Of a stretch of DNA of 64,000 nt, positions 33,780 through 47,151 are shown in pieces. How positions within the stretch are numbered: position 1 is the first letter of the stretch; every line of letters begins with the position of its first letter. The DNA is from Patescibacteria group bacterium (GTDB lineage: Bacteria; Patescibacteriota; Patescibacteriia; JAXHNJ01), in NCBI GenBank assembly GCA_041649715.1, contig JBAZMP010000003.1:36155-100154 (forward strand), given 5' to 3'. The translations under genes were made by a program, and so were the position numbers. Below the pieces are notes generated by a model. That model made no database searches. It was not told where the DNA came from and saw only the letters and a program-made list of their open reading frames with translations.

Positions 33780-34436
33780 TCAGGATTGTATAAAATCATT
33801 ATCTTTATATTCTAAATCGTTAAAATAATCACACGAATATCCCAGTTTTTTTTCTTCACCGCCCCAGCTATTACATGTGGCTATTTTATTACCCTCTCTA
33901 TCATAGTATATCTCACCCATGTCTGTAACCCAAGCACTTACCTGATATATTCTGCCGTATTTTTTAGTATTCCAAGAAACAATTTCATAATGGTTATCTT
34001 CCCATAAATTCCATGAATTAGAACTATATTGACTTTTTATATTATTTACAACAGTCATGTTAACCTTATCATCATCTGTGTTTGACGAGGGTTTTTGAGT
34101 GAAAAGATATAGTACGACACAAATTATGCCATAAACTAACCCGATAAATAATAACGTCAGCAGTAGTGATTTAACGAGATTTTTTTTATTAATAAACACA
34201 AAATAACAAGAAATGATGTATATTGCTATTAGGTATATTAGATTAAAAATAATGAAGATTGGCCAAGAATCTGGGACAGCACCCATAAACATATATTTAT
34301 AAGTTGACAGACGAGATAAAAAACTCGCTTCAATTAAATCAGTAAAAAACCAGACGGCAACAACTGTAATTATTATTAGTCCAAAAAATATTAATAGTTT
34401 CTTTTTTACTGGTTTTAAAAATTTTAAGATGAACAT
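33780..34436 (-). CDS. Hypothetical membrane protein, strongly AT-rich, flanked by inverted repeats.
   Basis: 3 N-terminal TM helices plus a Trp/Tyr/Cys-containing C-terminal domain. Coding GC is about 30% versus about 47% in neighbours. Confidence 0.5.
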   Translation of the reverse strand: MFILKFLKPVKKKLLIFFGLIIITVVAVWFFTDLIEASFLSRLSTYKYMFMGAVPDSWPIFIIFNLIYLIAIYIISCYFVFINKKNLVKSLLLTLLFIGLVYGIICVVLYLFTQKPSSNTDDDKVNMTVVNNIKSQYSSNSWNLWEDNHYEIVSWNTKKYGRIYQVSAWVTDMGEIYYDREGNKIATCNSWGGEEKKLGYSCDYFNDLEYKDNDFIQS

Positions 34437-40487: not shown

Positions 40488-42509
40488 CTATCTGTCATAA
40501 TTCGCCAAAAAGTTTTCTCTATCGGTAATTTTGTTTATCTCACTAATCAACTGCTCGGTCAAAATCTGCGGTTCCAGTTTTCGCCATCTATTTTCGATAG
40601 CTGTTTTACGGAAAGTAATATTAATCAATGGCGTAATATCCATCAACTTTAATATCCATTTCAACCTTGTCGGTGTTTCATCGATATATTTAATATATTG
40701 GTCTCTTACAAGTTTTGAATAATATTCAACGAATTGTATAGAATACTCGATTGATCCACTTTCCCAAGTAATTCGGCTGATTTCATGTTTATCTTGAAGG
40801 GTCAATTTATTCTTGCCAATAAATTTGATGATTGTTTGTTTATCCTTTAGATTTACCCCGGGATTAAAAATCGTATATATGATCGGCAAAGTCAATTTTC
40901 CTTCCGCGATATCATTATGTGATGTGCTTTTCATTCCCTTGCTCAAGTCAGACATTTGTTCTGGAAAAATTAAATCGCCCAAATCGTTCCTGATCATCTG
41001 TACCAAACCGAATATTTTTGAGATATAAATGCAGGCGCTTTCTGTTTCTTTTTTATTATAAAACTGCGCCCCGACATTGGTTGATTTAACAGCCATGCGG
41101 CCTATCTCTTCATAAAAAGCCCCGCAAATGCCATAAATCCGGTTAAAGTATTTCTTTAAAGCCGATTCTAAATTATTTTCCTGGATAAACCCTAATAAAT
41201 CCTTATTATTTGTAAATGTTAAATCAATATCAATCGGCTGTCCTAAATACATTATATATTGGACATCATTCAGGGCTGAAAGTAACTGTTTAGATGGTTC
41301 TTCCTTATCTCTGGTTAATTCGTATAACAAAACTAATGAGAGACAATGACCTATTGCACCCAGCAAAAAAGCGTTTTTTCTGCTTCCAAATTTTTTATGG
41401 AGTGTTTTTTCTCCCTGGCGACTGTCAGAATCGTCAAAAACATCATCAATGGCGTAAGTATTCAGCCAATTATATATTTCGAGAATGGCGCCCATTTGAT
41501 AAACAAAACTTTCATGAAAATATTTTTGTGAGGCAATAATATGATGACTAACCAAATCATAAAGCTCAAAAAAGATCGTCGGCCGAGTTTTCTTCTTTCC
41601 TTGTTTTCTTCCTTGAATTTCTTGGGCCGGAATATTAAACCAGTAGGCTATCATGCCAGAAATATCCTTAATATTTTTCTTTCCCTCGAAATAACTTAAA
41701 TACTTGCTGATAGAATGATAAAGAAATGGAACCAAGCTATTAAAATCTTCCTCAATTATTTGTTTGACGATTTTCGCGCGTTCATATTCTAAATTACATA
41801 TTTGACGGTAAGTAAATGGAACATCGAATTTTGTTTTACTGTTTTCAAAAACTTTGGTATTCAAGGCATATTTATTATAATCCGCATATTCCCCGCTTTT
41901 CTCCAGAATTTTCGCCACCACTGATATATCCGCATAATGACGAAGCTCCTTATCAACAGAATAATTAATAATCCCCTCCCTGGCGTAAATGGATTTATAA
42001 TATTTATCCAAATACTCAATAATTTTATTCTCAAATTGATCTTTATTTTCACAATAAAGAACAGCCGTGTGCGTGAATTTATCATTGTTTTTGGCAAATT
42101 CCGAGACTTCTTTGCTGGTTGTCAATATGGCGCCGATACTAAAAGTCACCATCCACTGGGCTGAATAGTAATCAAGGTGTTCCAAATTTTCTACTAACAT
42201 TATTGTCGGTTTTTCCTTACCAATCGCATAGCCGCATTCCCATGTACTATCCGTTCCGGCCGCTCCATTATTCTCCGTGTCATACATTTTCATGTAAGCA
42301 AGTATGGCATTACATTTATTTATTTCGCCTAAATCTTTTGTCGCAATTCTAATGGGAATTTTTCTCTGATCGGAGTAGTCTTCATCGATCAAGGCGGGCT
42401 GAAACAAATCTAACTTTTTATTAAAGAATGGCGAATATTCATCTTTAAAATTTTGTCTCCATAACTTTATTCCTGACGCTAAGTATATTTTATATCTTGT
42501 TACTGGCAT
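40488..42509 (-). CDS. Fusion protein: N-terminal nucleoside 2-deoxyribosyltransferase-like (NDT/SLOG-fold) domain plus C-terminal trans-polyprenyl diphosphate synthase-like domain.
   Basis: N-terminus: KIYLASG...CNAILAYM...NGAAGTDSTWECGYAIGKEKPTIML (NDT signature DxGTxxExGyAxaxgKP). C-terminus: GKKKTRPTIF (GKxxRP), first Asp-rich motif AIDDVFDDSDSRQGEKTLHKKFG (cf. IspB LLHDDVVDESDMRRGKATANAAFG), second motif region MIRNDLGDL...HNDIAEGKLTLPIIY (SARM degenerated to NDxxD, then GKxTLP). The gene is markedly AT-rich. Confidence 0.6.
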   Translation of the reverse strand: MPVTRYKIYLASGIKLWRQNFKDEYSPFFNKKLDLFQPALIDEDYSDQRKIPIRIATKDLGEINKCNAILAYMKMYDTENNGAAGTDSTWECGYAIGKEKPTIMLVENLEHLDYYSAQWMVTFSIGAILTTSKEVSEFAKNNDKFTHTAVLYCENKDQFENKIIEYLDKYYKSIYAREGIINYSVDKELRHYADISVVAKILEKSGEYADYNKYALNTKVFENSKTKFDVPFTYRQICNLEYERAKIVKQIIEEDFNSLVPFLYHSISKYLSYFEGKKNIKDISGMIAYWFNIPAQEIQGRKQGKKKTRPTIFFELYDLVSHHIIASQKYFHESFVYQMGAILEIYNWLNTYAIDDVFDDSDSRQGEKTLHKKFGSRKNAFLLGAIGHCLSLVLLYELTRDKEEPSKQLLSALNDVQYIMYLGQPIDIDLTFTNNKDLLGFIQENNLESALKKYFNRIYGICGAFYEEIGRMAVKSTNVGAQFYNKKETESACIYISKIFGLVQMIRNDLGDLIFPEQMSDLSKGMKSTSHNDIAEGKLTLPIIYTIFNPGVNLKDKQTIIKFIGKNKLTLQDKHEISRITWESGSIEYSIQFVEYYSKLVRDQYIKYIDETPTRLKWILKLMDITPLINITFRKTAIENRWRKLEPQILTEQLISEINKITDRENFLANYDR

Positions 42510-42540
42510 AGATCAATTATACTGAAAATAGTCAATAAAA

Positions 42541-42966
42541 TCAAATAAAATCCGCTATATTTGAAATCTGAGAAGAATCACTTATTTTTTCGGCACGCCT
42601 TTTCTCCCATTCCCTCACTTTTTCTTCATTAAATCCAAAATAATGACCGATTTCGTGAAGAATAACTTTATGGATTAACTTCTTGATATTTTCTTCTTCC
42701 GGTCCGGCTAAACTCTCAATCGGTTTTTTAAAAAGAGTGATTTTATCCGGCAACACGCCACTGTAACCTCGGCTTCGCCGGGTCAAAGGTATTCCCTGGT
42801 AAAGCCCTAAAAGCAATCCATTAAATTTTATCCCCCGCTCTTGCAAAGTGGCAACTCGGGGCTCATCTTCTAAAACAAAGGCTAAATTCTCTATTTTTTG
42901 ACGCAAGGCTTCCGGCAAGGACAAAATCGCTTCATTGATATATTTTACAAACTGAACTTGATTCAT
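42541..42966 (-). CDS. Zincin-like metallopeptidase family protein (DUF1025/Zn-dependent protease-like).
   Basis: HEIGHYFG (HExxH) near the C-terminus of a 141-aa protein. Confidence 0.65.
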   Translation of the reverse strand: MNQVQFVKYINEAILSLPEALRQKIENLAFVLEDEPRVATLQERGIKFNGLLLGLYQGIPLTRRSRGYSGVLPDKITLFKKPIESLAGPEEENIKKLIHKVILHEIGHYFGFNEEKVREWEKRRAEKISDSSQISNIADFI

Positions 42967-43644: not shown

Positions 43645-43942
43645 AGCTTTTCCTCCTGTCTAAGGCTTTCGCTACTAAACCGGACATGACGAATGACCGG
43701 CACTCCCATACCTTGGGAGATTTCGCGGCTTTGGCTTTGGTAGCCGCAGCGCCAACACCACTCCACTCAATCCTTACTAAAAGAGCCCGTAAAGAAGTGA
43801 GGTAGGCACTGCAGCCAAACTTGCCGATGAATTTTAAAAGAGTTTATTATATTCTCACGGATCCGCAATTCTGTCAATTTTAGCTTGTGGATAAATTTTT
43901 TGGTTATCTAACGTATAAATTATTAAATAGTCCAAGCCAGTT

Positions 43943-43972
43943 TCGGATTTTGAGTTTAGAATTTTTTATTTA
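43943..43972 (+). repeat. Third copy of the GGATTT-family element (gtttcggattttgagtttagaattttttattta), overlapping the 3' end of gene 43966..44226.
   Basis: Matches reverse-complemented 33571..33600 and 34640..34680 (tttcggattt-[ct]gag-[at]ttagaattt). Confidence 0.35.
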
Positions 43973-46215: not shown

Positions 46216-47151
46216 TTAATCATTCTGACCCGCCTGATTTTGATTCTGGTTCTGATTCATGTTCCGGTTCTGATTCTGATTTTGGTTGCTATTCTGATTG
46301 GAATTAACGCTGGCGTTAGTGTTACTGTTAACATTCCTATTGGCGTTAGTGTTCGTATTCGCGTTGGTATTGTTGTTCAACCAGGAGCCAAGGCGTTCCT
46401 TGACCTTCGCTTTCACTTCCTGGCCGTAATTATTTACTTCATTTTTCACTTGATTCTTAAATTCCTTGGCCTCGGCCGTCCCCTGGACATGTTCAATGGC
46501 ATTCTCTATCCCTTTGGCCGAGTTTTCCATGGCGTTCAAGATCGCACTCTGGGCGCTTTCAGGCGCTTTATCATAAACTTCCTGCAAGACCGCTTGCTGC
46601 CGCGTCTCGTTTTCTTTCAATTTTTCTACCAGAGCCTCGACATCCTTGCCGCTATCCTTGGCGGCTTTTAGCTTTTCCACGACCTTGTCAATTTTAGCCT
46701 GAAAGCGGGGCGCCAATTTCTGGGCCAATTCACACTTGTCTTTCACTTCGCAGAGTTTTTTAAGCTCTAATATCCTCCGGTTGGCAAACTTGAGGTCTAG
46801 CTCGGCTTTTTTCTCATCCGAAAAAGCAAAAAACGATTGCACGCTTTCCCACCAGGTTTTTAAGAAATACAAAGGCGAATCCGGCAATAAAGTCACCTCC
46901 TCGTCCTGCTGCTGGCCGACAACTATCTTATTAACATTGCTGTTGCCATTAACGTTGACATTGGAATTTACGTTAGCATTTAGGTTGGCATTCAGATTCG
47001 CATTGGCATTTAGATTAACATTAGTATTGATATTTGTGTTTGAGTTCTGATTTTCATTGCTATTTTGCGTGGCAATCAAGTTGTCTTCGGCCGATAAAAC
47101 AAAGGGGCAAAGCAGGGCGGAAAAAAGAACGAAAATGAATAATTTTTTCAT
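46216..47151 (-). CDS. Secreted DUF5667-type protein with Asn-rich low-complexity termini and a central coiled-coil.
   Basis: Signal peptide; (N-x)n tracts at both ends (NANLNANLNANVNSNVNVNGNSNVN; NTNANTNTNANRNVNSNTNASVNSNQNSNQNQNQNRNMNQNQNQNQ); LPDSPLYFLKTWWE motif typical of DUF5667. Confidence 0.6.
   Translation of the reverse strand: MKKLFIFVLFSALLCPFVLSAEDNLIATQNSNENQNSNTNINTNVNLNANANLNANLNANVNSNVNVNGNSNVNKIVVGQQQDEEVTLLPDSPLYFLKTWWESVQSFFAFSDEKKAELDLKFANRRILELKKLCEVKDKCELAQKLAPRFQAKIDKVVEKLKAAKDSGKDVEALVEKLKENETRQQAVLQEVYDKAPESAQSAILNAMENSAKGIENAIEHVQGTAEAKEFKNQVKNEVNNYGQEVKAKVKERLGSWLNNNTNANTNTNANRNVNSNTNASVNSNQNSNQNQNQNRNMNQNQNQNQAGQND

Follow-up and report, generated by a model that had tools for sequence, protein, structure and literature searches.

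What kind of enzyme joins a domain resembling nucleoside 2-deoxyribosyltransferases (NDTs) to one resembling trans-isoprenyl diphosphate synthases (trans-IPPSs), and what could such an enzyme do? The question is raised by a single gene in a 64,000-nucleotide stretch of a Patescibacteria group bacterium (assembly GCA_041649715.1, contig JBAZMP010000003.1, positions 36,155 to 100,154; hereafter the window). There, an open reading frame (ORF) on the reverse strand (40488..42509) opens with ATG and encodes 673 amino acids followed by a stop codon. The original prediction for this gene, made from the sequence without database searches, knew of no described enzyme that combines the two domains, and the searched literature bears this out: queries on the domain pair, on NDT together with UbiA, and on isoprenoid and nucleoside topics in Patescibacteria yielded no description of the fusion or of an association between NDT and UbiA. 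Here we describe the protein as a conserved, so far undescribed two-part enzyme found only in ultra-small symbionts, namely bacteria of the Candidate Phyla Radiation (CPR) and DPANN archaea, and weigh what its two modules may do together.

Two modules packed into one protein

Profile and fold searches uphold both domain assignments of the original prediction, and the motifs it quoted are all present, with their coordinates verified by translation. In Pfam, the C-terminal part of the protein matches polyprenyl_synt (PF00348) over residues 303-574 (E=1.1e-15, 58 bits against a cutoff of 27), and the N-terminal part matches Nuc_deoxyrib_tr (PF05014) over residues 18-112 with 25.0 bits (E=2.3e-5), slightly below the cutoff of 28.8. 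Homologs of the N-domain exceed that cutoff (P0054, 31.6 bits; P0059, 44.4 bits; P0060, 33.2 bits), precomputed PF05014 matches are present for most homologs, and the N-domain profile finds the Trypanosoma brucei NDT in the PDB (E=0.007). Fold searches give the N-domain the flavodoxin-like fold of NDTs, with NDT matches clearly above matches to TIR domains. The C-terminal module (C-module) adopts the all-alpha class I isoprenoid synthase fold of the IPPS type, in agreement with Foldseek, and MoeN5 (16), UbiA (13.5) and class I terpene cyclases (~11) score far lower in the fold comparison than its trans-IPPS match. Because the best score against the NCBIfam equivalogs of named prenyl diphosphate synthases is 34 bits, with cutoffs of 275-600, we assign the C-module to no named synthase type.

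Built from 39 family sequences, an AlphaFold2 model packs both modules together, with a mean predicted local distance difference test (pLDDT) score of 87.4 and a predicted template modelling (pTM) score of 0.87. The modules meet at the motif YLDxYYRSIYxRxGxINYxVD, in which Y166, Y170, S173, Y175, R177, G179, N182, V185 and D186 are invariant; the junction is no loose linker. A stand-alone C-module, P0053, begins at this same motif. At the other end of the C-module, residues 611-673 form an extension without equivalent in canonical synthases.

A rare family shared by CPR bacteria and DPANN archaea

An index of 5.8 billion proteins holds an identical protein (P0001), named 'polyprenyl synthetase family protein [Patescibacteria group bacterium]', and 51 further clusters of 593-724 amino acids from NCBI, JGI, ENA and Logan, at 39-79% identity and 87-100% coverage; at JGI the name is an automatic double one. 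The family is rare, with 107 matches among 1.84 billion cluster representatives in an exhaustive HMMER search and 19 loci among 185,579 species genomes. These loci fall in Buchanan-, Vogel-, Doudna-, Magasanik- and Kuenenbacteria, Paceibacterota and Kazan, and in bins labelled archaea or Gammaproteobacteria. A metagenome scan added 25 further loci, in 23 of which the two halves are contiguous and in frame. The original prediction had raised the concern that the architecture might be an assembly or sequencing chimera; its recurrence in 52 clusters, 19 genome loci and 23 metagenome loci, the invariant junction motif and the pTM of 0.87 refute this, and the chance of an artefact is negligible.

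Contigs that carry the fusion also encode archaeal markers, namely aEF-1beta (EF1_GNE) in L017:12243-12497 and L007:4903-5265, a CDC48-type ATPase in L017:5113-7434 and GatD in L004:8201-9559. These three loci are therefore truly archaeal (DPANN), and the family is thus common to CPR bacteria and DPANN archaea.

A remodelled prenyl-diphosphate site

We followed residue conservation across 39 aligned fusion-family sequences and compared it with canonical synthases by HMM and MAFFT alignments. Several hallmarks of trans-IPPSs are kept. Region I has invariant K307 and R309, with K306 in 37 of the 39 sequences; the first Asp-rich motif is intact, D355, D356 and D359 being present in 39/39 and R364 being likewise invariant; Q424 and D427 of GQxxD are invariant or nearly so; and K527, D533, G537 and K538 of the KGMKSTSHNDIAEGKLTLP region are invariant. 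Four positions, in contrast, are changed in all 39 sequences. The second Arg of the canonical RRG has become residue 365 (Q in 34, S in 5), the KT pair has become IC, the FQ ahead of the second Asp-rich motif has become invariant Q504/M505, and that motif itself is not DDxxD: it reads N508-D509-L-G-D512, with N508 in 39/39, so that the altered motif pointed out in the original prediction is real. In structures of farnesyl diphosphate synthase (FPPS), the RRG, KT, FQ and second-motif Asp residues contact isopentenyl diphosphate (IPP), the allylic diphosphate and the third Mg2+. At the chain-length positions -5/-4 stand the polar, invariant residues N350/T351, flanked by invariant W348 and Y352, which argues against a long hydrophobic product tunnel. 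Relative to canonical trans-IPPSs (FPPS and the geranylgeranyl, octaprenyl and solanesyl diphosphate synthases GGPPS, OPPS and SPS; PF00348), the fusion thus differs at four motifs (RRG to RQ, KT to IC, FQ to QM, DDxxD to NDxxD) and at this polar pair, and it carries in addition a helical N-extension of ~135 residues, a C-extension of ~60 residues and the NDT-like domain.

There are precedents for such a site outside ordinary chain elongation. ComQ has an IPPS fold, prenylates a Trp of ComX and retains the first motif (PMC5331326; PMC10853753). It requires ND (or GD) at its pseudo-second motif, where an N-to-D change 'drastically decreased' prenyl transfer to Trp (PMC5331326). Compared by published motif description, the fusion is like ComQ and PalQ in its IPPS-type fold, its intact first motif and the Asn-Asp that opens the second. 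Unlike them, it keeps the fifth Asp of the second motif, has an NDT-like domain instead of a peptide substrate, and at 20 loci lacks a comX-like precursor and comP/comA neighbours. Chrysanthemyl diphosphate synthase, which Rivera et al. reportedly described in 2001, is an irregular terpene synthase derived from FPPS. In it NDXXD replaces DDXXD and the chemistry is altered (bioRxiv 10.1101/169417). It is a plant enzyme close to FPPS, has no NDT domain, and is not known to share the other substitutions of the fusion.

NDxxD is not confined to the fusion. It also occurs in the nearest stand-alone relatives of the C-module, proteins of ~350 residues from DPANN archaea such as Micrarchaeia, which have DDxxD...RQG and RNDLxD in common with it. 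In two of three contexts the genes of these relatives are adjoined by radical S-adenosylmethionine (radical-SAM, or radical-SAM/SPASM) genes and small ORFs, not by lipid genes. Taken together, the four replaced positions, the contexts of the NDxxD relatives and the precedents of ComQ and chrysanthemyl diphosphate synthase lead us to favour somewhat, by analogy, prenyl transfer to an acceptor other than IPP, which appears somewhat more likely than ordinary chain elongation.

The DPANN relatives merit a remark of their own. At L031:5977-8035 and L032:2852-5789, stand-alone NDxxD genes have radical-SAM(/SPASM) genes and series of small ORFs as neighbours, an arrangement with the look of ribosomally synthesized and post-translationally modified peptide (RiPP) loci that suggests a possible ComQ-like peptide prenylation in archaea. 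A second DPANN group (P0069, P0073, P0074, P0078 and P0081) retains QIxNDIxDFVPP but no longer has a first Asp-rich motif or an RRG segment; its members are probably non-catalytic or differently functioning subunits.

A conserved NDT-type site in the N-domain

In alignments with the NDTs 2a0k and 6qai, E91 falls on the Glu of 'TAFEVGCA' / 'TAFELGYA'. D87, W90, E91, G93 and Y94 are invariant in 39/39 fusion-family sequences, as are Q118, M120 and H147; W119 is found in 38 of 39, and Y9 in all 37 sequences that cover its column. Y9, D87, W90, E91, G93 and M120 stay invariant when stand-alone paralogs are added, and this invariance of active-site positions argues that the N-domain is catalytic and not a spacer. 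The enzymes of the NDT family work via a glycosyl-Glu intermediate, through which the N-glycosidic bond is cleaved or exchanged. Because the N-domain keeps the Glu nucleophile E91, we expect its ligand to be a (deoxy)nucleoside or nucleotide, whose N-glycosidic bond it would cleave or exchange.

The domain nevertheless stands apart from NDTs and their relatives (PF05014 and PF15891; DNPH1/Rcl; the CMP hydrolase MilB; YtoQ). Its Asp-Glu spacing is 4 rather than 6, it has a prenyl-enzyme partner, and it carries residues of its own, W17, F21, Y25, W90, Q118-W119-M120 and H147, which mark this NDT-like clade. Nor is it a LOG protein in sequence: the LOG motif PGGxGTxxE is absent, the corresponding stretch reading GTDSTWE, and the LOG profile PF03641 has no match on the fusion protein in Pfam at E<=1.

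The NDT-like clade accompanies prenyl enzymes

The pairing of the two modules also exists as separate genes. In L029 (GCA_041645165.1) and in L030, an independent Logan assembly, a 168-residue NDT-like gene overlaps the P0053 gene by 26 nt in another frame, and P0053 is a 493-residue stand-alone C-module with 28.5% identity to the fusion C-module over 438 residues (E=1e-36). The NDT-like protein of this split pair carries DCAFEIG, a more canonical motif, and its kinship with the fusion N-domain is distant, from which we conclude that the pairing has survived deep divergence.

Stand-alone homologs of the N-domain, ~170 residues long, form ~25 clusters at 33-57% identity. Their genes lie 8-12 nt from a UbiA gene in L020, L021, L022, L025, L023/L024 and L034, where the paralogs show 33-50% identity. 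L028 retains the Lnt-like and ligase genes of this setting, with its upstream side truncated by the contig boundary; L026, in which the gene is the last on the contig, is the sole examined context without a prenyl-enzyme partner. For the UbiA genes the best-matching model is the PRK12875-type 'prenyltransferase' and not that of decaprenyl-phosphate phosphoribosyltransferase (DPPR synthase). Fusion, split pair and UbiA adjacency together indicate that the NDT-like clade consistently accompanies an enzyme that binds and ionises prenyl diphosphates, and the two modules are probably obligate partners in one prenyl-transfer pathway. The nucleotide-isoprenoid chemistry that the original prediction listed among candidate functions is strengthened by the split-gene version and by the UbiA adjacency of the N-domain paralogs, and it stays a candidate.

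At most of these loci the genes belong to a recurring CPR cluster. Besides the NDT-like protein and one or two UbiA proteins of the PRK12875 type, it comprises an Lnt-like acyltransferase, an aryl-CoA ligase of the PaaK/FlxY-like kind, a histidine/tyrosine ammonia-lyase (HAL/TAL)-like protein and an ORF of ~70 residues. In L023/L024 the UbiA/NDT-like/lyase cluster is inserted in the ribosomal protein operon, which is otherwise conserved, between the genes for ribosomal proteins L5 and S14. Judged by its gene content, this apparently undescribed cluster looks like a pathway to a prenylated, phenylpropanoid-derived and possibly N-acylated product. A cluster protein of 400-430 residues that lacks strong Pfam matches was considered as a hidden C-module and rejected, as it has no BLAST similarity to the C-module and is PaaK/FlxY-like instead.

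A candidate mechanism and its alternatives

How might the two modules work together? In the mechanism that we propose, module 2 (residues 166-673) would bind a short allylic diphosphate, namely dimethylallyl (DMAPP), geranyl (GPP) or farnesyl diphosphate (FPP), through the first motif, N508/D509/D512 and Mg2+, would ionise it and, in the manner of ComQ, would move the prenyl group to a non-IPP acceptor. That acceptor would be a nucleobase or a nucleoside/nucleotide presented by module 1 (residues 1-165), which would either supply the free base or detach the base from its sugar once the base is prenylated, the step that LOG performs after isopentenyltransferase (IPT) in cytokinin synthesis. A membrane UbiA enzyme would replace module 2 in the sister system. 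The scheme builds on the observed folds, conservation, fusion/split relation and gene adjacency; donor chain length, acceptor and step order are its conjectural parts. Its logic is that of the IPT-LOG cytokinin pathway, which in Claviceps includes a fused IPT-LOG: a transferase that uses a prenyl diphosphate is coupled to an N-glycosidase of the SLOG/NDT class, which releases the prenylated base from the nucleotide. This is a functional analogy only: IPT has a P-loop fold, the modules of the fusion are not homologous to it, and they lack the LOG signature.

We put this nucleobase/nucleotide prenylation and N-glycoside-processing mechanism forward tentatively, and three observations weigh against it. 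D87, though invariant, is shifted by two residues relative to classical NDTs, which shortens the Asp-Glu spacing. Position 67 (codon 42309..42311), which aligns with the Asp of 'CDAVIAD' in the NDT 2a0k, is Asp in 37 of 39 family members and Asn in this protein, and Asn67 may change or weaken N-domain activity in this organism. In the C-module, region I is retained and the fold is very highly similar to that of real synthases. The fullest version of the proposal is rather unlikely: the fusion would be the first nucleobase/nucleotide prenyltransferase of the trans-IPPS fold tied to an NDT-class N-glycosidase, would make a prenylated purine- or pyrimidine-type molecule for dealings with the host, would have been shared laterally between CPR and DPANN, and would have its sister system in the UbiA clusters. 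The architecture of the fusion is new and conserved, and its active-site residues are remodelled; the chance that it amounts to a new enzyme class is realistic, though similarly small.

The retained region I and the closeness of the fold to real synthases are what one would expect if module 2 were an ordinary short-chain synthase that makes FPP or geranylgeranyl diphosphate (GGPP) for bactoprenol or archaeal lipids, with the NDT domain a salvage enzyme or nucleotide sensor fused for co-expression. We regard this as a serious contender and yet as somewhat unlikely, given that the family has invariant replacements at four catalytic or IPP-site positions that are otherwise nearly universal, that the catalytic Glu is invariant, and that a coincidental fusion leaves the UbiA partnership of the same NDT-like clade unexplained. 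The rarity of the family means, moreover, that the fusion cannot be a general CPR housekeeping synthase. No second trans-IPPS gene is present in the window or in the locus flanks, which cover less than whole genomes. If module 2 were instead a ComQ/PalQ-like peptide or protein prenyltransferase, with the NDT-like domain as a non-catalytic scaffold or recruiter, this would agree with the ND of the pseudo-second motif, with the radical-SAM/SPASM genes and small-ORF strings beside the nearest stand-alone NDxxD relatives, and with the conserved ~70-residue ORF of the UbiA clusters. No conserved small ORF or peptide-maturation gene, however, lies beside the fusion at the 20 loci, and the NDT site, with Glu, Asp and Tyr all invariant, favours glycoside catalysis over a scaffold, which makes this improbable.

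Slightly less probable again is a route to a prenyl-phospho-sugar carrier lipid comparable to decaprenyl-phospho-ribose, in which the NDT-like domain would move a (deoxy)ribosyl or phosphoribosyl group from a nucleotide to a polyprenyl (di)phosphate that module 2 holds or makes. The partner enzymes always bind polyprenyl groups, the UbiA clusters contain an Lnt-like membrane enzyme, one UbiA paralog is weakly similar to DPPR synthase (E=4e-7, far below cutoff), and the covalent glycosyl-Glu intermediate of NDTs is open to alternative acceptors. Yet phosphate acceptors have, to our knowledge, no precedent among enzymes of the NDT family, the UbiA genes are of the PRK12875 type rather than DPPR synthases, and the AlphaFold2 model of the fusion protein has no membrane segment. 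A part in anti-phage defence or as a nucleotide-depleting toxin effector, which the original prediction had entertained, is very unlikely and finds no echo in our searches: neither the fusion protein nor its four neighbours match a family in PADLOC-DB, no conserved neighbour or sensor gene accompanies it, NDT matches outrank TIR matches, its sole PHROG match is a generic NDT family (1e-5), and no relatives of the fusion occur among IMG/VR viral contigs, INPHARED phages or PLSDB plasmids.

Neighbourhood, composition and lateral transfer

The fusion gene is solitary. All-versus-all ORF clustering across 20 loci gave no neighbour shared by more than four of them, and thus no support for a conserved operon or system. 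The neighbours named in the original prediction are indeed a DUF456 gene (E=3e-35, Pfam) and a Zincin_1 gene (E=3.6e-26, Pfam); they are specific to this window, and none of the other loci has a Zincin_1 gene as neighbour of the fusion. A TrmB-family regulator lies divergently upstream of the fusion, or of the split pair, in three lineages only (L029:6602-7369 and its counterpart L030, L003:8456-9208 and L014:3-623) and is not found in this window; its placement hints at small-molecule-controlled expression. A sigma-70-like promoter match (Table 1) stops 7 nt ahead of the ATG, with no obvious Shine-Dalgarno sequence, and suggests that the fusion gene may have its own promoter and an almost leaderless mRNA.

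The gene is as AT-rich as had been claimed, with a G+C content (GC) of 0.344 against a mean of 0.444 (s.d. 0.042) for 57 window genes, the second lowest value, and a third-position GC (GC3) of 0.353 against 0.493 in flanking genes. It is a low-GC outlier also in L012 (z = -4.0), L005 and L008, and of ordinary composition in L001, L002, L004, L015 and L017. Buchananbacteria hold both the 65% and the 41% identity subfamilies. The GC outliers, the mixed subfamilies in Buchananbacteria and the crossing between bacteria and archaea fit repeated lateral transfer followed by amelioration. The horizontal acquisition proposed earlier is thus plausible from the GC outlier and the patchy CPR/DPANN spread, whereas the DUF456 gene, the zincin gene and the nearby repeat that had been cited with it are not conserved in the family. 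That repeat, a 'GGATTT-family' element about 1.4 kb away, does exist as a tandem at 43939-43965, but spans only 26 nt, is imperfect (TRF score 40) and has no counterpart on the other side of the fusion gene; because it is short, imperfect and without a flanking partner, we give it no weight. No direct or inverted repeats bracket the fusion gene, and with relatives absent from the viral, phage and plasmid collections there is no indication of a transfer vehicle.

Some further features of the window and the loci deserve mention. Immediately upstream of the fusion gene, the Zincin_1 gene (42541..42966, reverse strand) shows a GC of 0.385 and a GC3 of 0.359; because it too is low in GC, it may have come in together with the fusion gene. 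The lowest-GC gene of the window, below the fusion gene, is 33780..34436 on the reverse strand (GC 0.291, GC3 0.251), a further candidate for foreign DNA. ORF 46216..47151 (reverse strand) encodes an Asn-rich low-complexity protein with NxNxN repeats at both ends and a signal-peptide-like N-terminus, and the DNA beneath it has tandem repeats of 6, 12 and 18 nt. L008 and L009 (CAIOLF010000046.1) are mirror images of one contig, position x corresponding to 109075-x, and that contig is probably a palindromic or hairpin assembly artefact.

Table 1 Features of the fusion gene and loci of the related UbiA clusters. Positions are those of the window unless a locus is named; aa, amino acid residues.
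Feature	Residues	Position	Strand	Remark
NDT-like / trans-IPPS-like fusion protein, whole ORF		40488..42509	-	
Sigma-70-like promoter TTGATT-17-TATAAT		42516..42544	-	consensus match only
N-terminal NDT-fold domain	aa 1-165	42015..42509	-	
NDT signature GTDSTWECGYAIGKEKP	aa 85-101	42207..42257	-	alignment to 2a0k/6qai
E91, aligned with catalytic Glu nucleophile of NDTs	E91	42237-42239	-	
Junction motif and helical extension, part of C-module	to aa 300	41610..42014	-	helices with pLDDT >90
Junction motif YLDxYYRSIYxRxGxINYxVD	aa 166-186	41952-42014	-	
trans-IPPS-fold core	aa 301-610	40680..41609	-	
Region I GKKKTRP	aa 304-310	41580..41600	-	equivalent to diphosphate-binding Lys/Arg of GKxxRP; aligns with GGKRIRP-like motifs
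First Asp-rich motif DDVFDDSDSRQ	aa 355-365	41415..41447	-	
RIYGICG	aa 457-463	41121..41141	-	Lys/Thr of KT replaced by invariant I461/C462; R457 invariant
Altered second Asp-rich region QMIRNDLGD	aa 504-512	40974..41000	-	FQxxDDxxD replaced by QM-I-R-NDxxD
KGMKSTSHNDIAEGKLTLP	aa 524-542	40884..40940	-	equivalent to canonical GK..g.D..eGK.TLP region
Family-specific C-terminal extension	aa 611-673	40491..40679	-	invariant ETPTR..KW, F633, W642
CPR UbiA/NDT-like cluster loci		L020:3018-10467; L022:1150-8338; L025; L023/L024:2236-10377; L028; L034		

Significance

CPR bacteria and DPANN archaea are host-dependent and metabolically minimal, and very few of their lineage-specific enzymes are understood. 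The fusion is a tightly conserved accessory enzyme of both domains of life, in which a predicted nucleoside-processing domain is coupled to a remodelled prenyl-diphosphate enzyme. Should module 2 prove to be a plain FPP/GGPP synthase, its obligatory pairing with an NDT-like domain would still indicate that nucleotide salvage is tied, in a way so far unrecognised, to the supply of isoprenoids, in organisms that depend on scavenging for nucleotides and isoprenoids alike. If the proposed mechanism is true, it would extend the rule drawn from ComQ, by which ND in the second motif marks a non-IPP acceptor, and it would reveal a new prenyltransferase class together with new nucleobase-isoprenoid metabolites in episymbionts, possibly signals or membrane-anchored nucleobases.

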